A stretch of DNA of 64,000 bases from Candidatus Omnitrophota bacterium. GTDB lineage: Bacteria > Omnitrophota > Gorgyraeia > Gygaellales > Profunditerraquicolaceae. The stretch lies in the NCBI GenBank assembly GCA_026387335.1, contig JAPLLX010000002.1, positions 77,326-141,325 on the forward strand. Direction: 5' to 3'. A program made the position numbers and the translations under genes. Positions 28,348-59,934 of this stretch are shown piece by piece. Numbering within the stretch: the stretch's first letter is position 1; each line of letters begins with the position of its first letter. The notes below the pieces were generated by a model. That model worked only from the letters and a program-made list of their open reading frames with translations. It ran no database searches and was not told where the DNA came from.

Positions 28348-28377
28348 AAAAATAACAGGCAGGGAAGGAGAAACGAT

Positions 28378-29571: not shown

Positions 29572-29574
29572 GCA

Positions 29575-30039: not shown

Positions 30040-30040
30040 T

Positions 30041-30070
30041 CTGTTCTTTAGGCAGACAGGAGGTAAAAGG
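30041..30070 (+). promoter_or_regulatory. conserved pre-SD element, copy D (CTGTTCTTTAGGCAGACAGGAGGTAAAAGG)
   Basis: See copy B. Lies 5' of ATG 30076. Confidence 0.45.
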
Positions 30071-30075
30071 AAAAT

Positions 30076-30312
30076 ATGGCTAAGAAGGTTAAGATTTATA
30101 GCACTCCTACTTGTCCGTGGTGTATCCGGGTCAAGCAGTTTTTAAAAGAAAATAATATAGTTTTTGAAGATTATGATGTTTCTTCCGACCCGGCAAAGGC
30201 TGAGGAGATGGTTAAAAAAACCGGGCAAATGGGTGTGCCGGTATTGGATATTGAAGGCGAAATCATCGTCGGGTTTGATAAAGAGAAAATAAAAGCGTCT
30301 TTAGGGTTCTAA
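30076..30312 (+). CDS. glutaredoxin-like protein (NrdH/YruB type)
   Basis: 78 aa with CPWC active site and GVPVL motif. Confidence 0.75.
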   Translation: MAKKVKIYSTPTCPWCIRVKQFLKENNIVFEDYDVSSDPAKAEEMVKKTGQMGVPVLDIEGEIIVGFDKEKIKASLGF

Positions 30313-30322
30313 GTTTTAAGCT

Positions 30323-31312: not shown

Positions 31313-31753
31313 ATGAAAATCACCTATAAGGGCGATTACGCCTTAAAGACAATTTTGGATTTAGCCGCTCATTTCGGGAACGGACCGGTGGTCATCAACG
31401 ATTTATCCCGGCGCCTGGATATCCCCACAAAGTTCCTAGAGCAGATACTTTTGGATTTAAAGCGGGCGCACTTTGTGGAGAGTAAGCGCGGTAAGATCGG
31501 AGGCTATTCTTTGGCCAGGCATCCAGGGCAAATTACCCTGGGAGAGGTGACCCGTTTTATTGACGGCCCGATTGAGCCGATTGCCTGCGTAGATAAAAGA
31601 TATTCCGGCTGTCATGACGCGGGAGCCTGTGTTTTTAGAAGCATTTGGGGCCAGGTAAGCAGCTCAACCGCCAAGATCATAGATAATATAACCTTTGAAG
31701 ACCTTTTGAAAAGGTCAAAGAGGACAAATAAGTCTTTCAATTACCAAATTTAA
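31313..31753 (+). CDS. Rrf2-family regulator (CymR/IscR-like)
   Basis: 146 aa with Rrf2 N-terminus MKITYKGDYALKTILDLA and three spaced cysteines (CVDKRYSGCHDAGAC). Confidence 0.85.
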   Translation: MKITYKGDYALKTILDLAAHFGNGPVVINDLSRRLDIPTKFLEQILLDLKRAHFVESKRGKIGGYSLARHPGQITLGEVTRFIDGPIEPIACVDKRYSGCHDAGACVFRSIWGQVSSSTAKIIDNITFEDLLKRSKRTNKSFNYQI

Positions 31754-34140: not shown

Positions 34141-34143
34141 AAA

Positions 34144-34551
34144 ATGGTTTCTAAGAGAATAGTCCTGCATTTTCCGACTCGCCTGGTTGACCAGCCGATA
34201 GTCTATAAACTGGTCAAAGAATTTGATTTGCAGTTTAATATCCTGAAGGCCTTTGTTACTCCGCAAGAAGAGGGCCTTATGGTTGTGGAGCTAAACGGAA
34301 AAAGAGAAAATTTTGATAAGGGGATAGAATATTTACAGTCTTGCGGGGTGCGCATCCAATCCTTAGCTCAAGATGTTATCAGGAATGAAGATAAATGCAC
34401 GGAATGCGGCGTATGCGTCCCGATCTGTCCGACTGAGGCCCTGGTAGTTGACCCCGCAACGCGCAAGGTAATTTTTCATAATAAAAAATGTATTGCCTGC
34501 GAGCTCTGCGTTAAAATCTGTCCTCCGCGCGCCATGGAAGTGCATTTCTAA
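34144..34551 (+). CDS. NIL domain plus 2x[4Fe-4S] ferredoxin (MA1822-like partner)
   Basis: 135 aa with an NIL-like N-terminus, then CTECGVCVPICP and CIACELCVKICP. Confidence 0.75.
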   Translation: MVSKRIVLHFPTRLVDQPIVYKLVKEFDLQFNILKAFVTPQEEGLMVVELNGKRENFDKGIEYLQSCGVRIQSLAQDVIRNEDKCTECGVCVPICPTEALVVDPATRKVIFHNKKCIACELCVKICPPRAMEVHF

Positions 34552-39865: not shown

Positions 39866-42800
39866 ATGAAAGTCAAATTAAGAAAAATCCTATCTTTAGC
39901 TTTAACCATTAGTTTACTTTTTCAGCAAATAGGTTTTGCCCAGATAGCTACCGAACTTAACCTGGTCAATCACTTCGCCAGGATGGCTAGCAGTCTCACA
40001 GTAGAGAAATTTCGGCCCCTGCACCTGCGTTATTTCTCTTACGACAACTTAAATGACAATTTCAAGGTATTGGTGGATAAAGGTGACTTCGAGAAGGGAC
40101 TGTCCCCGAAGGGGGCTGTCCCTGAAGAGAAACTTAAAGAAGAAACCAAAACCCTCCTTAGCTACTTCCTTGTAGGAGTTACTCTTCCAGATAGTATGTT
40201 CTGGGTTAACCTGCGCCCTGATTCCGAAGACCAGATAATAGACCAGTATCTGGAGAAGACAGATATAGGTAAGATAATGCTGGAAGCAGATCTCCAGCTA
40301 AAGAAAGACACCGCGCTAATGACTTCTCCGGCTACCCCTGAAGGTAGGGAATACTGGGATAGGCTCTATAAGAAGGCAGCCGAGCTTTATGGCTATGATA
40401 ATGTTAGCATACCTACCTTAACCCGGCCCTGGATAGTCCCCGGAGAAATAATTGTCCGGGAATCTCAAGACTCAGCCTATGTTTATAAAGCTAATCTTAA
40501 GGTAATGCTGGAGCAGGATTACTTAAAAGATTCTAGTAACTATAACTTTAAAGACAGCCGCTCCAAAGCCCTGAATGAATACTCATCCGAACTAATAAGG
40601 GAATTAATTATCCCTAAGCTCACTAAAGAAGTAAACTCCAGCAAAAGATACGCTCCTTTACGCCAGGTATATTACTCTTTAATCCTGGCCCGCTGGTTTA
40701 AACTGCGCTTTAGCGGCAAAACCGGCACCTATGCTTCGCTCATTAACACTAGGAATTTAACTAACTTAATATCTAAAGACTCCTGGTCCAAGACCGATTA
40801 TTTTAAACAATACCAAAAATCCTTCTCTGAAGGCGAATACAATATCCAAGAACCAGTGCGTACCCCTACAGGCCAGGTAATCAGGAGTTACTTTAGCGGC
40901 GGGATAGATGTAGCTAGTAGCGCTATTAATACTCAGAATGGCGTTAGTAATCTTAAAGCGGCGTTGCCCCTTTCTTTGTTTTCTCGAACCGGAGTCATAA
41001 TAGGAGGAAATGCCGCAAGGCCTTTTAGCGTAAATCTGCAGCCCGTTGTTGCCGCTTCAGTCGGCGCCGCCTCGCCGGTTAAAACCTCTAGCCCGATATT
41101 TACTCTTGATGATAGAAATGGGGTAGTCTTTTCTGTTTATCCCAGAACAGAAATAAGAGAGGATCAACTAAGAGAGGCGGCGGAGGTTTTGAAAAACCGG
41201 ATTTTTAACTATCCAAAAAATGGCAAGATTATTGATATTCAGCTAGTCCCTGGCTCTAAGCGGCAGATAGCTTATCCTACGCGCTGGAAAATAGTTATAG
41301 AGCATAAGCCTGATTTAGAAGAAACTCTGGTTACATTAGTAAATGATCAGGGCAAAGTTATTATTAATATAGGCTATTCTATCGATAGTAAAGCGCTCGA
41401 TTTACCAGAAAAACTTCTTAACGAACACCTGCAGATGGCATTGATTAGCGCCGCATCCAGAATAAGGTTTAATTCACTGGCCGCCGCCTCGCCGGTTAGT
41501 TCATTAGAAAATCAAGCATATCTTCTTGCTTTAACCTTGGGCATAAAAGATTCAGAAAGGAAGTATGTCGCGGTGGTATTTATGATGCCTTTGATAAAAG
41601 CCTTTATGGATAATAGTAATCCTCCTCCGACTTCAAGCCAGGCCAAAGAATTCTATCAGAGAATAATAAATAATACAGACAAGACAGTTTCAGTTGAAGT
41701 TTTAGCCCGGTCGTTTGCTTTCCTTTCAAATCCGAACGCTAGCTTGTCGGAAAAAGAAAAATTCAACAGCTCGCCGGTGACTTCAAATTTAGCTAAGGCA
41801 GTTGAGGAAGCGCAAAGCCAGTTGCCGGCAGATGTAAATGAACAGATTTTAAAGTTTATTGTTACCGGCGATGAAAATGGAAGAATACTTTATCCTATTT
41901 GGCCGCAAGATTCTGTTATGGTCGGACATGTCAGAGATGACCGGGCTGGATATTTTGCCAGAGGCCTGCAGAATAGAGGCTTTAAAAATTTATTAGGATA
42001 TATTAAATTTACCAATGATTTCCAAGGTAAAGCTGTTTTGTCCGAAGAAACTATCGCTAGTGTTCCAAATACTTTTTTTGAGAGAATATCCAACAAGGGG
42101 TATCAAGTGTTGGTGATTTCTGAAGATGAGAAGAAAAGCCATACGGGTAAAAACGCTGCCGGTAGGAAAAAGGACGGGCTTTTCCCCGGGCAAAAACAGA
42201 TTGTAATACCTATGCAGAAATCTGAAATGGCCTATGTAGATACTCCCCAGATGAAAATGAAAGAATGCGCTGACGAGGTATTAAATGGACTGGATGACGA
42301 TGCTACAGATTTTATTTTAGTTAATCTGCTAAGTTCAGATATGATGAAACACACCGGTAACTTCCAAGCGGCAAAAAAAAGTAATGAAATAACCGACCAG
42401 CAGATCGGAAGAATAAAAGAAAAGGTTGATAGAATAAAAAGCCATATTCTGGGTGATATGATGAAAGAAGTCAATAAATACTTATCTAGAGAAGAGGCCA
42501 GTCAGCTTTATGTTTTACTATTGAATAATTATGCTGAATTTTTAGCAAGGCTGAAGAATAAAAACCAGGAGCTCTATAAACGGATAAAAGATTTAGAAGC
42601 CAAAATTCCCATCTTTGTTATTACTGCTGACCATGGCGCTTCTGAGGCAGGTCTCACTGATAATCCGAAGGAATCCGACACTTTCCATACAGCCAATCCA
42701 GTGCCGTATATTATTTATGATCCCCTAAGAACTCAAAAATTAGCTTTAAAGTCCGGACAGACCATCAGGAATAACGGGGCTACATTATTACACCTATTAG

Positions 42801-45800
42801 GCGAAGAGATCCCCCAAGGGTCTGATCCCAGCTTGCTGCCTGATGATTATCAAGGAAGTAAGCGTAGGATCACGATGGCTGTTTTGGATGGCTGGGGTAT
42901 AAACCCTGATCAGAATTATCCCTGGGATGCTATCCGGCTGGCCAATACACCTAATTATGACTGGATGGTTGAGAATGCGTCTTTCACTCAGGTCCAAGCG
43001 CACGGTGAAGTGATCGGATTAAGAGGCCCATTATCTTTGGAAGAAGGTAGACACCATTTAAGAGGCCTGCAAGCAGGCCAGACTGACGTTGGCCACCTGC
43101 ATTTGTTCTCACTGAGAGAGATTAAACAACCTTTATGGTATGTAGACAGGCTTATCAAAGGCAGTATACGCGATGGCGTTTTTGATGAAAGCAAACCCGA
43201 AGTCCAGGTATTGGTAAAAGAATTACAAAGGGTTAAGGATAATAATTTGAGATTTCATTATATAACCATCGCTTCTGAGGGTGGAGTGCATTCTTCGCTC
43301 TATCATATGTATGCCTTGATGAGATTAGCTAAGAAAATCGGCTTAAGGCAGGATCAATTTATTATCCATTTTGCCGCTGACGGTAGGGATGTGCCTACGC
43401 GCACCGCGCATCTATACATTCAGGATGTTGAAAAACGCATTGAAGAAATTGGAATAGGCGTAATTGCAACGGTATTTGGCAGGGATATGTTCGTACGTAA
43501 GGATGGCGCAGAAAATATCACTAATCGCATCATTGATGTAATGGAGGGTATTAATCTGGATGCGCAGGATGTCACGCAGGTAAAATCTGTCGCCAGCTCG
43601 GCGGTCACAGCAGTAGAATCTTTGAGAAATGATATTCTAACTAGGCTAAAAGAACGGATAAAAGATGATTCTGTTGTTAACCTGGTAAGGTCAAACTACT
43701 TATTTTATACGGCGAATACTCCTTCTAAATTAGCAAAGGCACTTGTTCAGATAGAAGAGAATCTGGATGGATTGATTATGTCTGCCACCGAAGAAAGATC
43801 GAGAGACCTGCAGACGCTCCAAGAATCAATAGAATCAGAACTGGCTAAACTTGTCTCCGTCGACTTGCCGGTGGAGACTATCAGTGAATTTGCAAAGATA
43901 GTTGAAAAACTGGCTGGTTATGGAGATGTAAGTTTTGATATATCGGGAACGGGAACTTTGAGAATACGCTATGCTGGTAATTTGTCTATGGTAGATAAGG
44001 TAGAAGCCGACAAGCTTCTGGTTAAGGCTAGAAAATTAATAGTAGAAGTTTCTTCTATAATAGGAAAAAAGATAAGCCAGTCATATGTGATGAAATTCCC
44101 GCAGGGGACTTTAGCTGCTAAGATAAGGGAAGATTTACTGCTTGAAAAAGCAAGGATATCAGAAAGTTTCGCCAGCTCGGAGGTTACTTATATAGACATA
44201 AATGAAGTAAGGCCGCCGGATAAGAGTTTTACTTTTCAACCCACAAATGGAGTGAGAATTTTTATTAATAATCGTGTCAATTGGTATACTCTGCAATTGG
44301 CTAGGTATGAGCCGGGAAAGAAGAATTATTTGATATTTAAGATTGGCAATCAACCTGTTCATTACGCTTACCTGAGCAGTAATCTTACAATTGGCCAACA
44401 GGATGTTGTTAGGACTATAATGAGAAAAATAGAGAATGGAACTCAGCTGTGGACAGAAATAGACTTAATCCAAGCGTTGGAAAAAGCATTATCTATGTCA
44501 CAATATAAGCCTAAAACTCAAGAATTACCGTCACCAATTATAATAGAACCTATTGTAGATAATAAAATTAAAGTGGAGTCGGGTGATTCAGAGCGCGCCA
44601 GCTCGCCGGTGCAGAAGGAAGAAAGATCGAACTATCTATTCTCTGGGTTACAGGAGGCAACCTTAGATGCAATTGGGGATATCCAGGGATTGGCAAGTTG
44701 GGCGCCTTTAATAGAAGAAGGCCCCAGCGGCGTAGAGCTAGGTATGGATATTATAATGAAGGAATACGGTTTAGATTCAGATAAGCCTATTCTTACGCAA
44801 CGATTAGCCGAACCAGGTAATTTTAAAGAGCTTTTGGAAAAAATCGATAAATTATATGAGTTTTTGGAAAAAAAATTAGAGAGCTTTTCTAAATTACTCG
44901 CTGATGTTAAAGAACAACAAAAGAAAATAATGACCCAGCATATAAGTAGTGTTAGCGACCAGGGTAAGGGTATAGAAAAAAGTTCCGTTTATTGGGGGAG
45001 TGAGTTTGTTTTAGAAGTTGCAATTAATAACATTGAAATAGCAATGCTTAAGTTAAGGCAAGCTGTTGAGAAAGTCAAAGGAGATATAGCTATTGTACCC
45101 AACTCATATATCGGGACTAAATTAAAGGAAGGCGCCAGCTCGGCGGTAACCAGAGAGAAAAAAGAGTCAGTTAACCTTTTAGGCGGAAGCACGCAAAAAA
45201 GAGTGCTTAGGGTTTATGAAGAGAAGGGCAGAGATTTAATAGCTACAGCCCTAGCTACAGGCCTTACTTTGGATATTGTATCTGAGTATGTTAAGGACGC
45301 CAAGCGTAATCCGGCCAGCTCGGCGGTGACGGAAAAAATTAAGGAAACGTTTCGCCAAGGAGGACTTTCCTTGAGTGAGTATACTATGGATTATATCGCG
45401 AAAAGGTTAAGCTCCATATTAAAGGATGGCGATGATATTGATAGAGATACTGCTGCTAAAATATTAATTAGCGTATATGATAATAATAAGCTTGCGGGTG
45501 GAACTCGAGCCCTCGGTCAAGTGTTTGCAACGCTTAATGATGCCAGGGAATTGCGGGAAATGGTAAAATACATCCGCGATCAGAAGGATAAATCTGTTGC
45601 CAGCTCGGCGGTGCATCATAAAATAATCAACCTCTACGATTTTGATTCTATCAAGGCGAAGAAAATAGATCCAAGTATTTTAAAAAATAGATTCATAGAG
45701 AAAATAGAAGAATTAATAGCAGATGTAAGGGAAGGTAAGAGAAGAGAATTTGCCGGTGAGTTGATACGATTAGCGAAAGCTGATGAGAACCTTTATACGA

Positions 45801-46357
45801 TTTGGTTTACCGATACAACATGGGTAGATATTAGACCTCAAGGGACAGAGATAGATATTAATTTTAGGTGTCGAGCTGGAATAGAGCAAAGCGTTGTGTG
45901 GGATGTTAGGCGTTTGATTAAGCTTTCCCAGTCAGAATTGTTAGTAGGAACCGTCGGCTCGGCGGTGCAGACTCCTGAGGAGACCGCAAGTTCAGCGTTG
46001 ACTCCCGGCGGTATTGATTTCCGCGCTCTACCGATGAGCATCCAGCCGATGGGAAGTTTTGCGGGCCTGAATTTTAAGCTGCCGCAGTTGACTCAAGCGC
46101 AGCTTAAGCAAATCAATATTGAATCAGAGATGCAACAGGTTAAGAATCTGGTAGAATCAGGGATTGTTCCTTCCGGAGACAGGATTAAAGAGCTTATCGC
46201 CGCTTGCAGCCAGAAGGGGAAGATTAGTTATTATGTAGATAATCTATTACTCTGCCTGGTAGATATATGTAAACTTGAAGAGCAGAATGCCTTTGAAACT
46301 TCCCCGGAGCTAAGAGAGGCGCTGGCGATTGTTGATTCGCTTGGCGGGCAGGTATAA
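39866..46357 (+). CDS. giant secreted mosaic protein (2163 aa) with embedded circularly permuted iPGM-like phosphatase domain; function unknown
   Basis: Uninterrupted 6.5-kb ORF with RBS AAAAGGAG and signal peptide MKVKLRKILSLALTISLLFQQIGFAQ. Has recurring ASS(A/P)V junctions, iPGM motifs (see findings), and a C-terminal PGGIDFRALP region. Confidence 0.9.
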   Translation: MKVKLRKILSLALTISLLFQQIGFAQIATELNLVNHFARMASSLTVEKFRPLHLRYFSYDNLNDNFKVLVDKGDFEKGLSPKGAVPEEKLKEETKTLLSYFLVGVTLPDSMFWVNLRPDSEDQIIDQYLEKTDIGKIMLEADLQLKKDTALMTSPATPEGREYWDRLYKKAAELYGYDNVSIPTLTRPWIVPGEIIVRESQDSAYVYKANLKVMLEQDYLKDSSNYNFKDSRSKALNEYSSELIRELIIPKLTKEVNSSKRYAPLRQVYYSLILARWFKLRFSGKTGTYASLINTRNLTNLISKDSWSKTDYFKQYQKSFSEGEYNIQEPVRTPTGQVIRSYFSGGIDVASSAINTQNGVSNLKAALPLSLFSRTGVIIGGNAARPFSVNLQPVVAASVGAASPVKTSSPIFTLDDRNGVVFSVYPRTEIREDQLREAAEVLKNRIFNYPKNGKIIDIQLVPGSKRQIAYPTRWKIVIEHKPDLEETLVTLVNDQGKVIINIGYSIDSKALDLPEKLLNEHLQMALISAASRIRFNSLAAASPVSSLENQAYLLALTLGIKDSERKYVAVVFMMPLIKAFMDNSNPPPTSSQAKEFYQRIINNTDKTVSVEVLARSFAFLSNPNASLSEKEKFNSSPVTSNLAKAVEEAQSQLPADVNEQILKFIVTGDENGRILYPIWPQDSVMVGHVRDDRAGYFARGLQNRGFKNLLGYIKFTNDFQGKAVLSEETIASVPNTFFERISNKGYQVLVISEDEKKSHTGKNAAGRKKDGLFPGQKQIVIPMQKSEMAYVDTPQMKMKECADEVLNGLDDDATDFILVNLLSSDMMKHTGNFQAAKKSNEITDQQIGRIKEKVDRIKSHILGDMMKEVNKYLSREEASQLYVLLLNNYAEFLARLKNKNQELYKRIKDLEAKIPIFVITADHGASEAGLTDNPKESDTFHTANPVPYIIYDPLRTQKLALKSGQTIRNNGATLLHLLGEEIPQGSDPSLLPDDYQGSKRRITMAVLDGWGINPDQNYPWDAIRLANTPNYDWMVENASFTQVQAHGEVIGLRGPLSLEEGRHHLRGLQAGQTDVGHLHLFSLREIKQPLWYVDRLIKGSIRDGVFDESKPEVQVLVKELQRVKDNNLRFHYITIASEGGVHSSLYHMYALMRLAKKIGLRQDQFIIHFAADGRDVPTRTAHLYIQDVEKRIEEIGIGVIATVFGRDMFVRKDGAENITNRIIDVMEGINLDAQDVTQVKSVASSAVTAVESLRNDILTRLKERIKDDSVVNLVRSNYLFYTANTPSKLAKALVQIEENLDGLIMSATEERSRDLQTLQESIESELAKLVSVDLPVETISEFAKIVEKLAGYGDVSFDISGTGTLRIRYAGNLSMVDKVEADKLLVKARKLIVEVSSIIGKKISQSYVMKFPQGTLAAKIREDLLLEKARISESFASSEVTYIDINEVRPPDKSFTFQPTNGVRIFINNRVNWYTLQLARYEPGKKNYLIFKIGNQPVHYAYLSSNLTIGQQDVVRTIMRKIENGTQLWTEIDLIQALEKALSMSQYKPKTQELPSPIIIEPIVDNKIKVESGDSERASSPVQKEERSNYLFSGLQEATLDAIGDIQGLASWAPLIEEGPSGVELGMDIIMKEYGLDSDKPILTQRLAEPGNFKELLEKIDKLYEFLEKKLESFSKLLADVKEQQKKIMTQHISSVSDQGKGIEKSSVYWGSEFVLEVAINNIEIAMLKLRQAVEKVKGDIAIVPNSYIGTKLKEGASSAVTREKKESVNLLGGSTQKRVLRVYEEKGRDLIATALATGLTLDIVSEYVKDAKRNPASSAVTEKIKETFRQGGLSLSEYTMDYIAKRLSSILKDGDDIDRDTAAKILISVYDNNKLAGGTRALGQVFATLNDARELREMVKYIRDQKDKSVASSAVHHKIINLYDFDSIKAKKIDPSILKNRFIEKIEELIADVREGKRREFAGELIRLAKADENLYTIWFTDTTWVDIRPQGTEIDINFRCRAGIEQSVVWDVRRLIKLSQSELLVGTVGSAVQTPEETASSALTPGGIDFRALPMSIQPMGSFAGLNFKLPQLTQAQLKQINIESEMQQVKNLVESGIVPSGDRIKELIAACSQKGKISYYVDNLLLCLVDICKLEEQNAFETSPELREALAIVDSLGGQV
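43592..45613 (+). repeat. dispersed in-frame 14-mer GCCAGCTCGGCGGT (4 exact copies, 2 one-mismatch copies)
   Basis: Exact copies start at 43592, 45134, 45314 and 45599. One-mismatch copies start at 44171 (GCCAGCTCGGAGGT) and 44597 (GCCAGCTCGCCGGT). Degenerate relatives start at 41066, 41480, 41768, 45956 and 45986. Confidence 0.9.
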
Positions 46358-51647: not shown

Positions 51648-52745
51648 ATGGAAACCTATTTCTTAAAAAATGATGACCTGCTAAAATTTTATGAACGTAT
51701 AGCTCAGGAATATGAGTTGTATGTTCCGGTTAGGTCTAGGCTAGCGTATAAGGATGAGTGCGGATGCAAGCCGGGGTTTCCTACCGATGATTATTTCTTA
51801 AGGAAATTTTCGCAAGTAAATAAAGAGGATATAGTCTTTAGCGATTACCGCTGCGTAGAGCCTACCCGCGCGTTCTTCACCCATTATAAAGAAGAAGTCA
51901 GCGCGTATTTTGAAGACGCGCCCTTAAAAGAGAAGAGGGAGCGGCCTTTGGCCCTCTGCGGGATAAAGAATTGCGATATATTTTCCTTAAAAATACAGGA
52001 TTTTGTATTCCTGGAAGGAGATGAAACAGACCAGCTTTATAAGACCAGGAGGGATGGCGCTTTAATAATTTCTAGCGATTGCCCGCATTTTAAAGAAGTT
52101 TGTTTCTGCAGGGCGTTTGATATCAATCCCTATCCGCTCGAAGGTTTTGATTTTAACCTGGCGCCGCTGAATAACGGTTACCTTCTGGATGTAGCGTCGC
52201 CAAGAGCTAAAAGCATAGCTCTATCCTTAAAAAGTATATTAATTCCGGCGACATTGGGCCAGCTCTCGGGAAGAGCAGCCAAGAGAGAGTCGCTGGATCT
52301 GCGCCTGGATGAGCATCTCAAGCAATATAATATCCCCAAGAAAGAAACCCTGCAGGATACGGTATTATCTGGGTATAATTCCGGGATCTGGAATGATGAA
52401 GCGCGCACGTGCGTTGAATGCAATGGCTGCGTATTTATGTGCGATACCTGCCATTGTTTTCTGCTGGCGGATGAACCTTCAGCGCAGAATTCTAAACGGC
52501 TGCGCCTTTGGGACGGCTGCCTCTTTAAGAATTTTACCCGGGTGGCCGGAGGGGCCAACCCTTTACGCCTGCGTTATATGCGGCTGCGCAACCGTTTTTT
52601 AAAAAAATTTGATTTTTTTATTTCTAATCTAGGGATGCAAGCCTGTTGTGGCTGCGGAAGATGCATTGATGTCTGCCCGGGGAAAATTGATATACGCCGG
52701 ATATTGCGTAAACTATATGAAGAAAAACATCTACCAACCAGTTAA
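51648..52745 (+). CDS. Fe-S subunit, AsrA / sulfhydrogenase beta (HydB)-like
   Basis: 365 aa with cysteine clusters CVECNGCVFMCDTCHC and CCGCGRCIDVCP. Followed by the matching FAD/NAD subunit. Confidence 0.6.
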   Translation: METYFLKNDDLLKFYERIAQEYELYVPVRSRLAYKDECGCKPGFPTDDYFLRKFSQVNKEDIVFSDYRCVEPTRAFFTHYKEEVSAYFEDAPLKEKRERPLALCGIKNCDIFSLKIQDFVFLEGDETDQLYKTRRDGALIISSDCPHFKEVCFCRAFDINPYPLEGFDFNLAPLNNGYLLDVASPRAKSIALSLKSILIPATLGQLSGRAAKRESLDLRLDEHLKQYNIPKKETLQDTVLSGYNSGIWNDEARTCVECNGCVFMCDTCHCFLLADEPSAQNSKRLRLWDGCLFKNFTRVAGGANPLRLRYMRLRNRFLKKFDFFISNLGMQACCGCGRCIDVCPGKIDIRRILRKLYEEKHLPTS

Positions 52746-53535
52746 GGCTGTTATTGAGGAAATAATCGAGGAATCCTCAACGATAAAGACTTTCCGGCTT
52801 AAGCCCGAAGGGGATTTTAGTTTTTCTACCGGCCAGTTCATTGAATTGACTGTGCCCGGAGTGGGAGAAGCGCCATTTACCCCTTCTTCTGATCCGGGGG
52901 TCAAGGGAAGTTTAGACCTTACTATAATGAATGCGGGTGAAGTCACCTCTAAATTACATTCTCTGCGTAAAGGAGATGCAGTGGGCCTGCGCGGGCCTTA
53001 CGGCAAGGGTTATCCTTTGGATACGTTTAAGGGAAAGGATATTTTGATCGTCGGCGGCGGAGTGGGTCTAGCGCCGTTACGCTCGTTATTATTCAGTCTT
53101 TTCTCCAAGATCAATAATTACAATAAAGTCGTCTTGCGTTACGGCGCCCGCTCGCCAAAAGACATAGTTTATAAGACCTCTCTTCCTGATTGGGCCAAGA
53201 TGGAGCGAGTGGATGTTTTAGTCAGTGTAGATATAGGGGAACCTGCTTGGCAGGGGAACGTGGGTCTGGTGACTACGATATTAGGGAACGCTCCGATAGA
53301 TTTCACGAATGCCGTCGGAATAGTCTGTGGCCCTCCGATCATGATGAAATTTGTCACTTTGAAATTACTGGACATAGGTTTTAAGCCGCCGGATATATAT
53401 TTATCTATGGAAAAGAGTATGTCCTGCGGGCTGGGTAAATGCGGGCATTGCCGTTTAGGCAAATATTATGCCTGTAAAGACGGCCCGGTATTTACTTACG
53501 AACAGTTAAAAGATATCCAGGGTATTTGGGATTAA
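52717..53535 (+). CDS. FAD/NAD(P)-binding [2Fe-2S] subunit, AsrB / sulfhydrogenase gamma (HydG)-like
   Basis: ATG 52717 (MKKNIYQPVKAVIEEI) is preferred over the tracked start 52648. NAD motif GGGVGLAP and C-terminal CGLGKCGHCRLG. Confidence 0.7.
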   Translation: MKKNIYQPVKAVIEEIIEESSTIKTFRLKPEGDFSFSTGQFIELTVPGVGEAPFTPSSDPGVKGSLDLTIMNAGEVTSKLHSLRKGDAVGLRGPYGKGYPLDTFKGKDILIVGGGVGLAPLRSLLFSLFSKINNYNKVVLRYGARSPKDIVYKTSLPDWAKMERVDVLVSVDIGEPAWQGNVGLVTTILGNAPIDFTNAVGIVCGPPIMMKFVTLKLLDIGFKPPDIYLSMEKSMSCGLGKCGHCRLGKYYACKDGPVFTYEQLKDIQGIWD

Positions 53536-53539
53536 TGCG

Positions 53540-54034
53540 ATGAAAAGGTTATTTCTAGATTTAGATATTTGCGATAAGTGTAAAGAATGCAAGGTTACCT
53601 GTGATTATTTCTATCATCCGCAGAACGACGGTATTACGTCTTTACGCGAATACGCGACTTTCGCGACTATCTGCCGGCATTGTGAAGAAGCGCCCTGCGT
53701 GGATTCCTGTTATCATAACGCCCTGGAGAGGGCGCCTGACGGGCATATTAAGCGTTATAAGATGCGCTGCACAAGCTGTAAATCCTGTTCCATTGCCTGT
53801 CCTTTCGGAATTATTTTCCAGGATTTTATTCCCTATCTGGATTCTAAATGCGATTATTGCGTAGGTAAAAGCGCCGAACTTCCTAAATGCGCGTTTACCT
53901 GCCCCGAAAAAGCTATAGAGGTCAAAGAAGTCGAAGAGAGCTTAGAGCGGGATATTTATTTTGTGGGAGAACATTTAGCGGTGCATTCGCGTAAATGGTC
54001 AAGGGAGGATATACAACCCCCGAGAAAGAAATGA
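53540..54034 (+). CDS. poly-[4Fe-4S] ferredoxin, HycB-like electron-transfer subunit
   Basis: 164 aa with several CxxCxxC(xxxC) groups. Confidence 0.7.
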   Translation: MKRLFLDLDICDKCKECKVTCDYFYHPQNDGITSLREYATFATICRHCEEAPCVDSCYHNALERAPDGHIKRYKMRCTSCKSCSIACPFGIIFQDFIPYLDSKCDYCVGKSAELPKCAFTCPEKAIEVKEVEESLERDIYFVGEHLAVHSRKWSREDIQPPRKK

Positions 54035-54942
54035 AAGAAATTTTTTATTATTTAATATTTCCCGGTTTTTTATTCAGCGCGCTAGTAGGGCTAATGGCCG
54101 GTTGGATAGATAGAAAGTTGACGGCGCGCCTGCAATGGCGGGTCGGACCGCCCTGGCATCAGAATTTTACCGATATCGTAAAATTATTAGGTAAAGAGGT
54201 TATTGTCCCCGAAGGCGCCAGGCTTACGTTTTTATTTTCACCGTATCTGGGCTTGGTAAGCGCGATATTGGTAGCCGCCAGCTTAGGAAGGATCATAATT
54301 TCTCCGGCAAATAGTTTCGGCGCGGACTTGATCGTCTTTTTCTATCTTTTAAGCTTACCGGCCGTAGCCTTGATCATCGGGGCTTCTTCTTCCAGAAATC
54401 CGTTGGCTTCGGTAGGGGTATCCAGGGAGGTTAAACTTCTTTTAGCTTATGAGCTGCCGCTTATCCTCTCTATAATTACTGTGGTCATCAAAAGCAACGG
54501 GTCCCTCCAGATAGGCTCGATAATCCAGCAGCAGATGTTCTTTGGCTCCAATATTTTTTCATTTTCAGGCGCTTTGGCTTTTCTGGTCGCAATATTTTGT
54601 ATGCAGGCAAAATTAGGGTTAGGGCTTTTTGATGTTGCTGAAGCGGATCAGGAGCTTATGTGCGGGACCTTAATTGAATATTCGGGGCTGCCGTTGGCAA
54701 TATTTAAACTAACCAAGGCCTTAATGCTTTATACTGTCCCGCTTTTTATCATTGTTTTATTTTTAGGTTGCTCTTTAAGCCCGGCGTTACTGATCGCTAA
54801 ATATTTGATGCTGTTGGCTATAATGATATTGATCAAGAACACTAACCCGCGTTTACGCATAGACCAGGTTTTAAGATTCTTCTGGAGAATACCGACGCTG
54901 GCAGCCGGGGCAGCCGTTATTCTGGCTATGTTGGGATTATAA
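54031..54942 (+). CDS. NuoH/HycD-like membrane subunit of group 4 hydrogenase
   Basis: ATG 54031 overlaps the upstream stop (ATGA). Motif DRKLTARLQWRVGPP and about 8 TM segments. Confidence 0.8.
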   Translation: MKEIFYYLIFPGFLFSALVGLMAGWIDRKLTARLQWRVGPPWHQNFTDIVKLLGKEVIVPEGARLTFLFSPYLGLVSAILVAASLGRIIISPANSFGADLIVFFYLLSLPAVALIIGASSSRNPLASVGVSREVKLLLAYELPLILSIITVVIKSNGSLQIGSIIQQQMFFGSNIFSFSGALAFLVAIFCMQAKLGLGLFDVAEADQELMCGTLIEYSGLPLAIFKLTKALMLYTVPLFIIVLFLGCSLSPALLIAKYLMLLAIMILIKNTNPRLRIDQVLRFFWRIPTLAAGAAVILAMLGL

Positions 54943-54943
54943 T

Positions 54944-55369
54944 ATGGATATAAGACGTAAGGCTTGGACTAAATCTATCTGGGTATTTCATGTGAGCAAT
55001 GGCTCTTGCAATAATTGCGATATTGAAATCCTGGATTGTTTTACCCCCAGATTCGACCTTGAACGTTTTGGCATACAGCTTATCGGATCAGTCCGGCACG
55101 CCGACGCGCTTTTAATCACCGGGGCAATGAATAAAAAATCAATTCCCAGGATGAAAAAAATCTATGAACAAGCGGCTAAGCCCTGTGTGGTGGTAGCCTG
55201 CGGCACCTGCGCGTGTTCACAGCATATGTTCAGGGATAGCTATAATGTGGGGGAGCCTTTGGATAAAATATTACCGGTAGATGTCTATATTCCGGGTTGC
55301 CCTCCCAAGCCGGAGGCAATCATTGCCGGCATCGTAAAACTGGTAGATAAAGTAAGGAAGGGTAAATAA
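54944..55369 (+). CDS. [NiFe]-hydrogenase small subunit, NuoB/HycG/EchC-like
   Basis: 141 aa with N2-type cluster ligands (GSCNNCD, ACGTCA, PGCPP). Confidence 0.85.
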   Translation: MDIRRKAWTKSIWVFHVSNGSCNNCDIEILDCFTPRFDLERFGIQLIGSVRHADALLITGAMNKKSIPRMKKIYEQAAKPCVVVACGTCACSQHMFRDSYNVGEPLDKILPVDVYIPGCPPKPEAIIAGIVKLVDKVRKGK

Positions 55370-55373
55370 GCTT

Positions 55374-55802
55374 ATGGATATGCGCGACAGAATAAAAGAG
55401 AAATTACAGGATAAAATAAAAGATTGGCAGGAGAAGTCTATTAAGAGGATATACTTCGCAATAGACAAGAAAGATATTTTTAAGGTTACGCAGGTATTAT
55501 TTAAAGAGCTGGAACTAAGGTTTATCACTGCTTCCGCCACAGATATGCCGGATTATTTTGAGATTTTGTATCATTTCAGCAATGACCCTTCGGGCGAGAT
55601 CTATTCAGTCCGTGTTTTATTAGAAGATAAGCTTAAACCCGAAATCCAGTCAATAACCCCGATGTTTGCCGGCGCTGAATGGGTTGAGCGGGAGATCTGG
55701 GAGATGCTGGGGATTAATTTTAAGGGGCATCCGAATTTAAAAAAGCTTCTGCTGGCCGAAGAATGGCCGGAAGGTGAATATCCTTTGAGGAATAAAAAAT
55801 GA
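55374..55802 (+). CDS. NuoC/EchD-like subunit
   Basis: 142 aa with NuoC motifs (ANWYEREIWDM-like AEWVEREIWEMLGI, HPxL). Confidence 0.75.
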   Translation: MDMRDRIKEKLQDKIKDWQEKSIKRIYFAIDKKDIFKVTQVLFKELELRFITASATDMPDYFEILYHFSNDPSGEIYSVRVLLEDKLKPEIQSITPMFAGAEWVEREIWEMLGINFKGHPNLKKLLLAEEWPEGEYPLRNKK

Positions 55803-57007
55803 GCCATAAAATCATCGTGCCCATAGGGCCATATCACCCTTTACAGGAAGAGCCGGAATATTTCCAACTTTATGTTGAAGGCGAGCGGGTAGTTGATATA
55901 GATATAATTATCGGTTATAACCACCGCGGAATAGAAAAACTATCCGAGTCTAAACATTTTGACCAGGTGCCGTTCTTAGTCGAGCGTATTTGCGGCATTT
56001 GTTCGTCAAGCCATCCTTATGCTTATGTTTTAGCCGTAGAAAATATTTTAGGAGGAGAAGCAACTATTGTTCCGGAGAGAGCACTCTATATCCGCACAAT
56101 CATTGATGAACTCCAGAGGATCCACAGCCATCTCTTATGGTTGGGCCTGGCCGGACATTTTATCGGATATAATACTATCTGGATGTGGGCGTGGAAATAC
56201 CGCGAGCCGGTCCTGGATTGTTTTGAAATGGTTACCGGAAACCGGAATAACTACGCTATGTTCAAAGTCGGCGGAGTCAGGCGGGATATAAAAGACGAAG
56301 ATATTCCGGTCTTAAAAAAGATGCTGGACGAATTAAGCCCGGCGGTAGATTTATTCCGCGGCGCGATTATGGATGACCCGGTCATTAAAATGCGGCTTAA
56401 GGGCGTAGGGGTGTTGACCCGCCAACAGGTGATTGATTGGTGCGTTGTGGGCCCCACTGCCCGGGCCTCAGGAGTGAATATTGATATTCGCCGGGATGAT
56501 CCTTACGGAGTAATTGAGAGGCTGGATTGGAACGTAATTTTAGAAAAAGAGGGAGATATTTTTTGTAAAACCGTAGTCAGGATCCTGGAATTATATGAGA
56601 GTATAAGTATAATCCGGCAGTCCTTAAATAAGATCCCCAAGGGCGCTCCCATTGACGCCGAAGTCAAAGATATCCCTGCCGGAGAAGGCATCGGTAGAGT
56701 GGAAGCTCCCCGGGGTGAATGTTTCCATTATATAAAAAGCGACGGGACCAACCGGCCGATCAGGCATAAGATCCGCTCTCCGAGTTTTATGAATGTGGCT
56801 TCGGATAAAGTTTCGGCGGTAGGAGGGACGATTTCCGATGCTACGCTGACTCTAGCGGCGGTTGACCCCTGTTATTGTTGCACGGAGAGAGTGGCGGTTA
56901 TCCGCAAAACAGATAATCACAAAGTGATGAATGGCTGGGATTTGATTAAGTTGTCTCAAGAAAAGACCCTTAGACTAAAGGAGGTTTATTATGGTAGACC
57001 TGAATAG
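55799..57007 (+). CDS. group 4 [NiFe]-hydrogenase large subunit (NuoD/EchE/HycE-like)
   Basis: 402 aa with L1 motif RICGICSSSH and L2 motif DPCYCCTER both present. A tail of roughly 35 aa follows L2. Confidence 0.9.
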   Translation: MSHKIIVPIGPYHPLQEEPEYFQLYVEGERVVDIDIIIGYNHRGIEKLSESKHFDQVPFLVERICGICSSSHPYAYVLAVENILGGEATIVPERALYIRTIIDELQRIHSHLLWLGLAGHFIGYNTIWMWAWKYREPVLDCFEMVTGNRNNYAMFKVGGVRRDIKDEDIPVLKKMLDELSPAVDLFRGAIMDDPVIKMRLKGVGVLTRQQVIDWCVVGPTARASGVNIDIRRDDPYGVIERLDWNVILEKEGDIFCKTVVRILELYESISIIRQSLNKIPKGAPIDAEVKDIPAGEGIGRVEAPRGECFHYIKSDGTNRPIRHKIRSPSFMNVASDKVSAVGGTISDATLTLAAVDPCYCCTERVAVIRKTDNHKVMNGWDLIKLSQEKTLRLKEVYYGRPE

Positions 57008-57608
57008 TATTAAGGTAAAGATTAATCAAATGTCCAAAAGCGCTTCATCTATGTGGCAGCTTACTTATGACGCTTTCATTGAGCACGACGTGGACCTGAT
57101 CACCAAGGCCCTGCTTGAGGAAGATAAACTCAATGCTTTGGAAGAGGAAATCAATAAAGAAATAATCGGCTTAGCTCGTTCGTCAGTCACGCCGGAAGAA
57201 AAATCCAGAGTTATAACTTATGCCAATATTGCCGGGGATTTTGAGTTAATCGGAGACTACTGTAAGGATATTCTGGAGAGGATCCAGATAAAGATAGAAG
57301 AAAAGCTGCTTTTTAGCGAAGGAGCGGTGGAAGAATATAAGAACCTTTACAATAAAACCAAAGGCGCTTTGGATGAAGTTGTTTTTGTTTTGGAGAAAGA
57401 TAACCCCGCCCTGATTAAAGAAGTATTAAGAAAAGAGGAGCATATTGACAGCCTCGTGGATAAATACCGCCATAACCACGACCAGCGAATGCTTGTCGGC
57501 GAATGCACGCCTATGGGCTGTAATATGTTTTTGAACATGCTGGATTTTACAGCCGCGGTTTATTACCATATTAAAAAGATAGCTAAAAGCCTCTTAGAGA
57601 TAAAATGA
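56991..57608 (+). CDS. PhoU-like (PhoU/DUF47-type helical repeat) protein embedded in the hydrogenase operon
   Basis: 205 aa, all-helical, with two halves each carrying acidic E/DxxxD-type patches (EEDKLNALEEEINKE; KEEHIDSLVDKYRHNHD). Overlaps both neighbours. Confidence 0.4.
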   Translation: MVDLNSIKVKINQMSKSASSMWQLTYDAFIEHDVDLITKALLEEDKLNALEEEINKEIIGLARSSVTPEEKSRVITYANIAGDFELIGDYCKDILERIQIKIEEKLLFSEGAVEEYKNLYNKTKGALDEVVFVLEKDNPALIKEVLRKEEHIDSLVDKYRHNHDQRMLVGECTPMGCNMFLNMLDFTAAVYYHIKKIAKSLLEIK

Positions 57609-59338
57609 TGAATACCAGTTTATTCTTTTTACTTGCGCTTCCCCTGGCCGTTTGTTTAATTTTATTCTTTTTAGGCAAACAGGATAATCTGAGGAAGAAC
57701 TTAAGCTTAGCCGTATTCCTGTTAAGCCTGGTATTTTCCGTTTATTTATTTTTAAAGCCGCCCGGAGCCTGGAGCAGGTATTTATTTAACGGCTACGTTC
57801 TTACGCTCGGGCTGGATAAGCTCTCCCGCCTGATATTAATCTTCGCCAATCTTTTCGGGGTATTGGTCTGCTTATATTCTAAAGATTATATGAACGCTAA
57901 GCGCGGGTATTTCTCCTGGCTCCTGGGATTGCTGGTCTTTACTAATTTAGAAATACTGGCCACGGACTTTATTATATTCGTATTATCCTGGGGCGGTTCC
58001 ATCTTTATGCTCTACGCCTTACTTAACCTGGGTTCAAGTTTTAGCGCTAAAAAGGCCACGACAATATTAGGGTTTTCTTATATCTGTTTTATTATCGGCG
58101 CCTGTATCTATTCCAGGTTTAGCGGTTCATTCAGCATGTCAGGCGGGACGAGCATGGTTCTCAACCGGCCTGTATGCTGGCTAGCTTTTGGCTTGATGCT
58201 CACCGGCGCCCTGGCCAAGATGGGTTCGGGCCCATTTCATACCTGGATACCTACTGCCAGCGAAAATGCCCCTATTCCGGTTATGGCCATATTGCCGGCA
58301 TCTTTGGACAAACTGCTGGGCGTATACATACTCTCGCGCCTTTGCCTGGACTTCTTTGTGATGAATAGTTTTGTAATCGCGCTCTTGCTGATTACCGGGA
58401 GCCTCACTATAATTTTTGCGGTTTTGATGGCGCTTATCCAGCATGACTTAAGGAAGCTGCTGGCGTATCACGCGATAAGCCAGGCAGGATATATGGTCCT
58501 GGGTTTAGGCACCGGAAATCCCGTAGGGGTTATAGGCGCGATATTCCATATGTTTAACAACGCGATATACAAAAACGGGCTTTTCCTGGTGGGTGGCGCG
58601 GTAGAAAAAGAGAAGGGAACTTTTGACCTGGATAAATTAGGGGGCCTGGCCCGCTATATGCCGCTTACTTTTGCGAGCGCGCTGATTTTAGCTCTCTCCA
58701 TTTCAGGAGTCCCTCCTTTTAATGGTTTTGTTTCTAAGTTGATGATTTATCAGGGCACACTTTTAGGGCTTATGTCATCTTCAGGGATCTGGTTGCGTTT
58801 TGCTTTTATGTTTGCTTTAATTTCGGCGATGTTTGGCAGCGCCCTTACTTTGGCCAGTTTTATAAAATTTATCCACGCTATCTTTTTAGGCCAGGATAAT
58901 AACCTTAAGAAGAATAAAATAAGCGAGGCTCCCTGGAAGATGCTTACTCCGCTATTGGTCTTATCCGGGCTTTGCGTAGTCCTTGGGATATTCTCCAGCG
59001 CCTTTATCAGAGGAGAACTGGCTGCGTCTTTCTCATTCGCCCTAAATTATAGCGGAAAAATAAACAGTATGTTTGTCGCCTTGTTCTTAGGCGTAGCCTT
59101 ACTGGCGGGATTCCTTTTATGGAAAGTAATTTCTTCAGGCAAAGGGGTAAGGGAAGATAGCTTTTTTGTAGGAGGGGAGTCGGCCTACGGTTCGCCCAAT
59201 TTCCCGGCTACGGAATTTTATAAGACAATAGAGGACGTTCCTTTATTGTCTAAGGTTTATAAGTTTCTTAAATCCGGGAAATGGGATATCTATAACCTGT
59301 TAAACAAAATTTTGAAAATATGCGCCGTCCAAAAATAA
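57605..59338 (+). CDS. antiporter-like NuoL/M/N / HycC-type membrane subunit
   Basis: 577 aa with about 14 TM segments and conserved region KMGSGPFHTWIP. Confidence 0.8.
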   Translation: MMNTSLFFLLALPLAVCLILFFLGKQDNLRKNLSLAVFLLSLVFSVYLFLKPPGAWSRYLFNGYVLTLGLDKLSRLILIFANLFGVLVCLYSKDYMNAKRGYFSWLLGLLVFTNLEILATDFIIFVLSWGGSIFMLYALLNLGSSFSAKKATTILGFSYICFIIGACIYSRFSGSFSMSGGTSMVLNRPVCWLAFGLMLTGALAKMGSGPFHTWIPTASENAPIPVMAILPASLDKLLGVYILSRLCLDFFVMNSFVIALLLITGSLTIIFAVLMALIQHDLRKLLAYHAISQAGYMVLGLGTGNPVGVIGAIFHMFNNAIYKNGLFLVGGAVEKEKGTFDLDKLGGLARYMPLTFASALILALSISGVPPFNGFVSKLMIYQGTLLGLMSSSGIWLRFAFMFALISAMFGSALTLASFIKFIHAIFLGQDNNLKKNKISEAPWKMLTPLLVLSGLCVVLGIFSSAFIRGELAASFSFALNYSGKINSMFVALFLGVALLAGFLLWKVISSGKGVREDSFFVGGESAYGSPNFPATEFYKTIEDVPLLSKVYKFLKSGKWDIYNLLNKILKICAVQK

Positions 59339-59934
59339 GAGAATTAAAAGAGGTTATAAAGTCTTTATTCGGTCGCGCTTACACCAGCGATTTCCCGCGT
59401 AAGCCGCATACGCCTTACGAGAGGTTTCGCGGCAGGCCATATTTCCATGAGGAAGATTGCCTGGGTTGCACTGCCTGCGCTCAGGTCTGCCCGGCGAAAG
59501 CGATAGAGGTAAGCGATCAGGTGGCCGCAGGGGCAATAAAAAGAAAATTAACTGTTCATTGGGATATCTGCATATTTTGCGGGCAATGCGAGGCCAGTTG
59601 CCCTACCTTAAAAGGTATAATGCTCTCGCGGGAATTTGACCTGGCTACAACCGAGAAGAGGCAGGATTTAAAGCAGGTAATTGAAAAAGAGTTCGTAATC
59701 TGCGAATATTGCGGCGAGCCGATCCTGCCTTACGACCAGTATGTTTGGGTCGCTAAACGCTTAGGCGCGCTTACTTTTACCAACGCTTCGCTTCTGCTTT
59801 TTTATTTAAGAAGCGCCGGGCTGGCTTTAAAAGAAAGGTTTCTTGCCGGCAATAAACAGGCCGCTCTCAACCGTTCTACGCGCCTGAAAATCCTTTGTCC
59901 CCGCTGCCGGCGCGAGGCAGTAATCAAATCTTAA
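59320..59934 (+). CDS. NuoI/HycF-like 2x[4Fe-4S] subunit with C-terminal Cys4 extension
   Basis: CLGCTACAQVCP and CIFCGQCEASCP, then CEYCGEP...CPRCRRE. Confidence 0.7.
   Translation: MRRPKIRELKEVIKSLFGRAYTSDFPRKPHTPYERFRGRPYFHEEDCLGCTACAQVCPAKAIEVSDQVAAGAIKRKLTVHWDICIFCGQCEASCPTLKGIMLSREFDLATTEKRQDLKQVIEKEFVICEYCGEPILPYDQYVWVAKRLGALTFTNASLLLFYLRSAGLALKERFLAGNKQAALNRSTRLKILCPRCRREAVIKS

Follow-up and report, generated by a model that had tools for sequence, protein, structure and literature searches.

In this paper we describe a ten-gene operon at positions 51648-59934 on the + strand of a 64 kb stretch of DNA from an Omnitrophota bacterium, called the window below. We are highly confident that its product is a membrane-bound [NiFe]-hydrogenase of the Hun type, in a form that is derived and reduced. 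Hun was described in silico by Glass et al. 2021 (bioRxiv 10.1101/536078) as a 16-subunit Ni-Fe hydrogenase-Na+/H+ antiporter supercomplex, with AsrAB-like HunAB subunits and a large subunit, HunG, that carries CGIC-CYCC; HydDB puts HunG in group 4g, yet distant from other 4g sequences. In the window we find, in the same order, an AsrA/AsrB-like pair (HunA/B) with HunC upstream of the core, NuoH/B/C-like subunits, a large subunit with CGIC in its L1 motif and CYCC in L2, and HunH-like and NuoI-like (HunP-like) subunits. The Mrp-like module HunI-O, one of the four Hun modules, is absent, which leaves 10 genes instead of 16, and because of this absence we class the operon as a reduced variant and not as canonical Hun. 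A further difference is a PhoU gene, which Glass et al. do not mention.

Clusters of this kind have been described before. The hosts listed by Glass et al. 2021 are Atribacteria, Firmicutes, Omnitrophica, Elusimicrobia, Bacteroidetes and Kosmotoga, and in some of their metagenome-assembled genomes (MAGs) a molybdopterin protein lies between HunB and HunC. Bird et al. 2019 found in metatranscriptomes that the atribacterial complex is co-transcribed with an adjacent oxidoreductase, and proposed electrons from ferredoxin or NADH and/or sulfur compound reduction. Carnevali 2019 reported an 'enigmatic' Mrp-Mbh hydrogenase with asrA, asrB and cooF in Saganbacteria RX5A, and Omnitrophota genome papers list a 'group 4g, Mrp-linked' hydrogenase. 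Group 4b clusters that join a non-catalytic formate dehydrogenase (Fdh)-like protein to homologues of the gamma and beta subunits of Pyrococcus furiosus sulfhydrogenase I (SHI) are the subject of PMC13582414 (2026). Like the window, these clusters and that of RX5A place a beta/gamma-like module and a CooF/HycB-like connector on a group 4 core, but the window has neither the molybdopterin/Fdh-like gene nor the Mrp module.

The papers cited above mention neither an Mrp-less form nor a PhoU gene. Measured against the literature we searched, three observations seem to be new: the in situ loss of the Mrp-like module by an Omnitrophota clade with eight or more species, a PhoU-fold gene inside Omnitrophota hun operons, and the family-wide replacement of the glutamate of transmembrane helix 5 (TM5) in the MbhH-like subunit. 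A group 4 hydrogenase that is ion-motive and linked to NAD(P)H or sulfur is not a new idea, having been proposed earlier for the Hun family. An earlier note on this DNA had arrived at the same idea; it fits the gene content, but the large subunit belongs to a subgroup already described with this module.

Gene content of the operon

The ten open reading frames (ORFs) all have a strong Pfam or NCBIfam match (E 1e-11 to 4e-67). Six of the nine junctions between them are overlaps of 4 to 40 nucleotides (nt) and three are gaps of 1 to 4 nt. We take g2 to start at ATG 52717, not at GTG 52648 of the longest ORF. The genes, with lengths in amino acids (aa), are as follows.

g1, 51648..52745, +: HunA-like Fe-S subunit (SHI-beta / AsrA-like), 365 aa; Pfam Fer4_22 1.3e-26; 29 nt overlap with g2
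g2, 52717..53535, +: HunB-like FAD/NAD(P) [2Fe-2S] subunit (SHI-gamma / AsrB-like), 272 aa; 4 nt gap to g3
g3, 53540..54034, +: HunC-like polyferredoxin (HycB/CooF-type), 164 aa; Pfam Fer4_11; 40 nt overlap with g4, or 4 nt if g4 starts at ATG 54031
g4, 53995..54942, +: NuoH/MbhM/HycD-like membrane subunit (HunD), 315 aa; Pfam NADHdh 4.9e-59; 1 nt gap to g5
g5, 54944..55369, +: NuoB-like hydrogenase small subunit (HunE), 141 aa; Pfam Oxidored_q6 1.7e-29; 4 nt gap to g6
g6, 55374..55802, +: NuoC-like subunit (HunF), 142 aa; Pfam Complex1_30kDa 1e-26; 4 nt overlap with g7
g7, 55799..57007, +: [NiFe] large subunit (HunG-like, NuoD-type), 402 aa; Pfam Complex1_49kDa 3.6e-67 and NiFeSe_Hases; 17 nt overlap with g8
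g8, 56991..57608, +: PhoU-fold protein, 205 aa; Pfam PhoU 9.5e-21; 4 nt overlap with g9
g9, 57605..59338, +: antiporter-like subunit (HunH/MbhH/MrpA-like), 577 aa; Pfam Proton_antipo_M 6.7e-45; 19 nt overlap with g10 (59320..59338, +)
g10, 59320..59934, +: NuoI/HycF-like 2x[4Fe-4S] subunit (HunP-like), 204 aa

Much of what the earlier note had said of the operon holds. Its ten tightly coupled genes are present on the strand and at the coordinates given; its AsrA/HydB-like and AsrB/HydG-like pair, HycB-like polyferredoxin and NuoI agree with the domain and PDB matches; and the Ni-Fe motifs, RICGICSSSH and DPCYCCTER, had not been misread. The functions that it named match the domains, but there were nine of them for ten genes, and the PhoU gene at 56991-57608 had been missed. 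When about 50 further ORFs were surveyed with Pfam, no genes for formate dehydrogenase, CO dehydrogenase, AsrC, Hyp, HycI or Mrp proteins turned up elsewhere in the 64 kb, in line with the note's statements that the operon has no formate or CO dehydrogenase partner and that no hyp or protease genes lie in the window. Mrp genes were not found in the window by tblastn either.

All ten genes are under purifying selection, with dN/dS of 0.03-0.13 against five close relatives at saturated dS (one value, that of g4 against locus L006, is an alignment artefact and was left out). The upstream gene yqeY is probably not part of the cluster, because in several relatives 1-2 kb separates it from the first cluster gene.

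The [NiFe] core

The large subunit, g7, has the L1 motif RICGICSSSH (C65, C68) and the L2 motif DPCYCCTER (C358, C361), followed by a C-terminal tail of 38 residues. Four Ni-Fe cysteines on a NuoD-type large subunit, together with a NuoB-type small subunit, are features of group 4. In the small subunit, g5, the cysteines C22, C25, C89 and C119 are invariant in 51 sequences, which implies that it would carry one proximal [4Fe-4S] cluster. The CYCC form of L2 is found in all 50 family loci with a readable L2; the Atribacterota outgroup has DPCIACMDR, without CYCC. The extra cysteine occupies a position at which we take the HydDB group 4 pattern to be [AGST].

The closest solved large subunit is that of the P. 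furiosus membrane-bound hydrogenase (MBH; group 4d, 6CFW). Its MbhL matches g7 (6cfw_L, 4.1e-84, 285.8 bits) better than does HycE of Escherichia coli formate hydrogenlyase (FHL-1; 7z0s_E, 2.5e-73, 250.3 bits). Among characterised proteins, g1 and g2 are closest to the beta and gamma subunits of P. furiosus SHI (group 3b, 9NEZ), with conserved cofactor ligands, but they score below the cut-offs of the group 3b NCBIfam equivalogs (150 vs 690 bits and 194 vs 650 bits). The catalytic pair differs in type from that of SHI: it is of the NuoD/NuoB type and membrane-bound, not a group 3 alpha/delta pair.

The C-terminal tail is conserved in the family, and HycI and Hyp genes follow the related cluster of Kosmotoga olearia described below. 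For these reasons we expect maturation of the large subunit to proceed by cleavage at the C-terminus, with the genes for it lying outside the window. The earlier note had deduced endopeptidase maturation from the tail; the tail is there, and the support for maturation is indirect, coming from the HycI, HypF, HypC and HypD genes of K. olearia.

Electron-input subunits

The only strong PDB match of g1 is the SHI beta subunit of P. furiosus (9nez_B, 1.1e-28). In NCBIfam it matches ShyB (150 bits), HydB (126) and AsrA (95), all far under the curated cut-offs. Fifteen of its cysteines are invariant or nearly so in 32 family members (C109/145/152/154, C255/258/261/265, C268/270/291 and C333/336/339/343), and each cysteine group common with SHI beta is retained. 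Counting from the conserved cysteines, this implies that g1 would hold at least three [4Fe-4S] clusters.

The domains of g2 are FAD_binding_6, NAD_binding_1 and DHODB_Fe-S_bind in Pfam, with AsrB and HydG matches in NCBIfam, and its closest characterised homologue is SHI gamma (PDB 9nez_C, 3.2e-56). The motifs GEAPFTPSS, RGPYG, VGGGVGLAPLR, VCGPPIMMK, SCGxGKCGHC and CKDGPVF are at least 90% conserved among 41 sequences from six or more phyla, and the [2Fe-2S] cysteines are invariant across the family alignment.

Two further subunits have their best matches in E. coli FHL-1. For g3 this is the connector subunit HycB (7z0s_B, 1.9e-12). Each of its 16 cysteines is kept in 38-40 of 40 sequences, which implies four putative [4Fe-4S] clusters. 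For g10 the best full-length match is HycF (7z0s_F, 4.5e-20). Besides the eight cluster cysteines of g10, four more (C128, C131, C193 and C196) are invariant in 34 sequences. This extra CxxC...CxxC might bind zinc or a further cluster.

Conservation in related loci and in Kosmotoga olearia

We searched the ten window proteins by tblastn, with coverage filters, against 57 loci from GTDB species representatives. With its best 120 protein matches, whose named sources are nearly all Omnitrophota or Omnitrophica, the large subunit shares 82-91% identity, and with loci of the species representatives up to 93%. Where the upstream DNA is long enough and the large subunit is related (54-93% identity), the gene order beta-gamma-HycB-H-B-C-D was found in every locus, 36 of 36. 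Among them are Omnitrophota, Candidatus Mcinerneyibacterium (L037), WOR-3 (L040), Bipolaricaulota (L048, L049) and Dehalococcoidales (L050), and the order differs in the Atribacterota loci L052 and L053 (44% identity). The linkage of the beta/gamma pair to the group 4 core is old and is conserved across at least six phyla. The term 'chimeric', which the earlier note had applied to the operon, is therefore misleading, and its question about the synteny of the AsrAB-like pair with group 4 cores in related genomes finds a clear answer in these 36 loci.

Some loci depart from the common plan. In the Dehalococcoidales locus L050, which shows the Fdh-like form among the relatives of the window, a 582-aa molybdopterin oxidoreductase (5881-7629) lies between the gamma-like and HycB-like genes. 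In the Omnitrophota locus L042 (62% large-subunit identity) the NuoI-like gene follows 26 nt after the large subunit, with the antiporter-like gene about 2.7 kb beyond it.

Among 1.84 billion representatives at 50% identity, two full-length sequences are more than 55% identical to the large subunit and the remainder reach at most 49%. CYCC occurs in P0241, one of these two, and in a few fragmentary representatives; P0242 has DPCYSCTER instead, and the remaining representatives lack CYCC. By these identities the large-subunit family appears compact and well separated. One of the two clusters contains Kole_0568 of the cultured Thermotogota isolate K. olearia TBF 19.5.1, which is 57-59% identical to the large subunit; over the window proteins as a whole the identity to the K. 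olearia counterparts is 33-57%. The K. olearia locus (Kole_0561-0574) has the same order and a full Mrp module, followed by HycI, HypF, HypC and HypD.

Published RNA-seq transcription units of K. olearia place Kole_0568-0575, from the large subunit through the beta-like gene, in one unit. The cluster genes have a common low, temperature-dependent profile, and their values in reads per kilobase per million mapped reads (RPKM) co-vary. The co-transcription assumed in the earlier note is thus seen in K. olearia for the beta/gamma pair with the large subunit, but the operon boundaries in the window lack sequence signals: a consensus scan for promoters and terminators did no better than expected from shuffled sequence, and no operon boundary can be drawn from it. 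The 2017 expression tables treat the region of CP001634.1 that spans the first antiporter-like gene and the MbhD/E and MnhB genes as one 'pseudogene', Kole_0567; an independent gene call gives three intact ORFs there, of 599, 178 and 152 aa.

Membrane arm and loss of the Mrp-like module

The membrane arm is predicted to consist of just the NuoH-like subunit and one MbhH-like subunit, g9. In most relatives about 4 kb lie between the antiporter-like and NuoI-like genes, at the position of the g9/g10 junction in the window (59320..59338). The locus L022, with a large subunit 87% identical and the same flanks, has seven genes at this position: MbhD/E, MnhB, a NuoK-like gene, a second, MrpD-like antiporter subunit, MrpE, MrpF and MrpG. 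All seven are absent from the window and from eight species-level relatives (L001-L007; L043/L055, one MAG), in which the antiporter-like gene runs directly into the NuoI-like gene.

The best PDB matches of g9 are MrpA (6z16_A, 4e-38) and MbhH (6cfw_H, 2.8e-33). MbhH of P. furiosus is the nearest solved antiporter-like subunit for L022, whereas for g9 MrpA scores higher. A neighbour-joining tree shows g9 to be orthologous to the MbhH-like gene that comes first, on the large-subunit side, in the Mrp-bearing relatives. The large-subunit tree, likewise neighbour-joining and, like the antiporter tree, without bootstrap or other support values, nests the Mrp-less group among Mrp-bearing Omnitrophota. 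Both forms share the flanking order mnmA-nadA-rluA-uppP-pfkB-yqeY-[cluster]-MFS-peptidoglycan-binding protein-GH1. Because g9 groups with the MbhH-like gene, the Mrp-less group is nested and the chromosome order is shared, the evidence points to a deletion of the Mrp-like module in situ in the clade of the window.

These results bear on the comparison with known membrane arms. E. coli FHL-1 (4a, 7Z0S) and Ech (4e) also have a two-subunit membrane arm, but the window has no formate dehydrogenase, and its large subunit, which is closer to MbhL, is separate from NuoC. The Mrp-type module of the Mrp-bearing relatives contains the same Pfam families as that of P. furiosus MBH, and it is this Mrp part that the window would have lost. 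The two-subunit arm is, on this comparison, best read as a secondary loss from an Mrp-type ancestor and not as descent from Ech or FHL. The 'Ech/FHL-type' core of the earlier note is accordingly apt in subunit count, but not in its closest homologue, MbhL outscoring HycE, nor in its origin, the Mrp-less state being nested in Mrp-bearing relatives, and there is no formate dehydrogenase.

The antiporter-like genes show some further variation. The Omnitrophota loci L011 (11811-15097) and L015 have three such genes, with an extra one of 463 aa right after the PhoU gene, followed by one of 632-645 aa that is the closest to g9. The large-subunit and antiporter trees differ in the Mrp-bearing relative that they place nearest, a hint of module exchange. 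We also considered whether the loss of the Mrp-like module tracks a freshwater habitat, but this idea is unsupported, as by source names both forms come from groundwater or lake MAGs.

The PhoU-fold protein

Between the large subunit and the antiporter-like subunit the operon encodes a protein with the six-helix PhoU fold. The AlphaFold 2 model of g8 has a predicted local distance difference test score (pLDDT) of 92 and a predicted template modelling score (pTM) of 0.90. Its top Foldseek matches are the PhoU structures 4q25 (TM-score 0.89), 1t72 and 1sum, at about 17% sequence identity. The score against the PhoU equivalog TIGR02135 is 52 bits, short of the cut-off of 130. The neighbours of g8 are hydrogenase genes and no linkage to pst or phoR was found; the Pfam survey detected no pst genes in the 64-kb window.

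We found 369 homologues of g8, and among the 120 matches listed the source names are all Omnitrophota or Omnitrophica. The invariant residues include E85, G88, D89, E96, R97, R160, H163, R166, C172, P174, D185 and H193, with the E/D motif in the first repeat, and dN/dS is 0.03-0.07. The position of the gene varies in related loci, where it either directly follows the large subunit or immediately precedes the NuoI-like gene. It is absent from some Omnitrophota loci, from all non-Omnitrophota loci and from K. olearia. Probably g8 serves as an accessory factor, a regulator or an aid to assembly; a more specific role in regulation, assembly or metal handling is speculation. A full-text literature search for PhoU with NiFe hydrogenase clusters found no paper that ties PhoU to a hydrogenase operon.

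Proposed mechanism and alternatives

We lean, with moderate confidence, towards an NAD(P)H-linked, ion-coupled hydrogenase. NAD(P)H would give its electrons at the flavin of g2, and these would reach the Ni-Fe site over a chain of about eleven Fe-S clusters. There, in a reversible reaction, protons would be reduced to H2. The NuoH-like/MbhH-like arm would couple this reaction to ion movement. At high H2 the ion gradient would drive H2 evolution, and ion export would be possible with H2 oxidation or at very low H2; oxidation of H2 might export roughly one ion per H2. A Na+/H+ exchange step has been proposed for enzymes of the MBH type, and this step would disappear with the loss of the Mrp-like module. 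Entry of electrons from NAD(P)H is favoured by the homology of g2 to SHI gamma, the conserved FAD, NAD(P) and [2Fe-2S] motifs, the invariant Fe-S ligands and the purifying selection.

Several points weigh against this mechanism. NAD(P)H has a potential of about -320 mV and the H+/H2 couple, at 1 atm, one of -414 mV, and H2 evolution from NAD(P)H is thus endergonic at standard conditions. Because of these potentials, very low H2 or input from the ion gradient would be needed. The Hun family is known from genomes only, and Glass et al. 2021 prefer ferredoxin as the donor of HunABC. The sequence features would suit NADH and NADPH alike. That the beta/gamma pair would dock on the HycB-like subunit we infer from synteny and from models of sister clusters made with AlphaFold 3 (PMC13582414). 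In K. olearia the cluster is weakly expressed, with RPKM of 30-200 on pyruvate against about 1900 for the Fe-only hydrogenase.

A last point of this kind concerns the antiporter-like subunit. The lysines of TM7, TM8 and TM12 are retained in g9 and its orthologues, but the TM5 glutamate is replaced by glycine in g9 (about residue 130) and in all orthologues (L001-L051). At this site the MbhH-like subunit of the family has 'WG', where P. furiosus MbhH (6cfw_H), which keeps the glutamate, has 'LE' and MrpA has 'WE'. The second, MrpD-like subunit of the family keeps the TM5 glutamate. Pumping by a lone antiporter-like subunit without this residue would not be assured.

The main rival to NAD(P)H as donor is a ferredoxin-driven Hun, in which HunA/B/C take electrons from reduced ferredoxin to the Ni-Fe site as in MBH, and pyridine nucleotides are not a physiological substrate of the FNR-like subunit. 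Glass et al. 2021 published this reading of the family, and HydDB gives group 4g as putatively ferredoxin-coupled. Moreover, g7 is nearest to the ferredoxin-dependent MbhL, and H2 production from ferredoxin is exergonic and could drive ion export without extra assumptions. To our knowledge from its published structure, P. furiosus MBH has no beta, gamma or HycB-like subunits and takes ferredoxin without them. Under a ferredoxin-driven scheme the three extra subunits are therefore puzzling, and their strictly conserved FAD/NAD(P) site across six phyla goes unexplained. The closest characterised homologue of g2 binds NADPH, and SHI gamma and beta take part in NADPH oxidation (PMC13582414). We consider ferredoxin as the sole physiological donor unlikely, though it is the alternative to be taken most seriously.

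Another alternative is a branched or confurcating enzyme, which would make H2 from NAD(P)H together with another donor of low potential, either ferredoxin or an unknown substrate. The AlphaFold 3 models of PMC13582414 contain a three-way Fe-S network, proposed to couple H2, NADPH and an unknown substrate, and bifurcation or confurcation is suggested there. The molybdopterin protein between HunB and HunC in L050, Saganbacteria and some Hun MAGs would suit such a scheme, and the extra invariant CxxC...CxxC of g10 could be an added site. However, the third (Fdh-like) branch is absent from the window and from nearly all Omnitrophota loci, and no second flavin or known bifurcating site is seen in the sequence. 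Confurcation is plausible in the sister clusters that bear an Fdh-like protein; for the window we regard it as improbable.

The beta/gamma pair could instead be a reductase of sulfur, polysulfide or sulfite to or from which the hydrogenase passes electrons, given its homology to AsrA/AsrB and sulfhydrogenase subunits and the sulfur compound reduction named as a possibility by Bird et al. 2019, but this is very improbable, since no AsrC/siroheme subunit is found in the window or in the published hun operon and g1 and g2 stay below the AsrA and AsrB equivalog cut-offs (TIGR02910, 95 vs 323 bits; TIGR02911, 227 vs 289 bits). Just as little can be said for g1 and g2 as a separate soluble NAD(P)H:acceptor oxidoreductase that is merely adjacent to the hydrogenase: the promoter and terminator scan is neutral on it, but adjacency and order are kept in all 36 assessable loci with genes overlapping or nearly abutting, the genes are co-transcribed and co-vary in K. 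olearia, and the HycB-like connector is found only in the Hun-type family.

Building on an NAD(P)H-linked hydrogenase, the ten-gene form might be a minimal self-sufficient NAD(P)H:H+ oxidoreductase, an analogue of complex I with protons in place of quinone, an independently recruited FNR-type input, two membrane subunits, and PhoU as a new regulatory or assembly subunit of the membrane arm. It shares with complex I a nucleotide-oxidising flavoprotein module, an Fe-S chain, a NuoBCDI module and a NuoH/antiporter-like arm. It differs in that the input is FNR/PyrK-like and not NuoEFG, and in having a Ni-Fe proton-reducing site and not a quinone pocket. We put this combined picture forward as a tentative possibility, less likely than not. 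If true, such a minimal oxidoreductase would let a fermenter shed NAD(P)H as H2 for, or at the cost of, an ion gradient.

We know of no NAD(P)H-linked energy-converting [NiFe]-hydrogenase that has been demonstrated biochemically, and found none in the literature. The Hun family is widespread in subsurface and groundwater bacteria, and the ten-gene version is the smallest natural form of the family seen here. With two membrane subunits and no Mrp module, it should be the most tractable for expression, structure, donor and coupling tests. One conserved chromosomal site documents an Mbh/Mrp-type complex collapsing to an Ech/FHL-like layout, which bears on module gain and loss among the relatives of complex I. 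Experiments are also feasible in K. olearia, which is cultured and has the full form beside maturation genes.

Other observations in the window

Upstream of the operon, a 2163-aa ORF (39866-46357, +) has only phosphoglycerate-mutase-type pieces in Pfam, in an unusual order (Metalloenzyme at residues 731-857, iPGM_N at 1101-1231), and most of the protein is unannotated. We rejected it as one of the Omnitrophota 'giant ORFs', which are defined as >20 kb. An apparent oxygen/redox stress cluster at 26052-31231 (+) encodes an Rrf2 regulator, desulfoferrodoxin, an FNR-like NAD-binding protein, a flavodiiron protein (ODP/flavodoxin), a PNPOx-like protein and a thioredoxin-reductase-like protein, and is followed by a second Rrf2 regulator at 31313-31753. 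At 32926-34551 (+) a homocysteine-biosynthesis (HcyBio) gene precedes a NIL-domain 2x[4Fe-4S] ferredoxin; a similar NIL-ferredoxin gene is found in L026 (5269-5676) immediately upstream of the beta-like gene.

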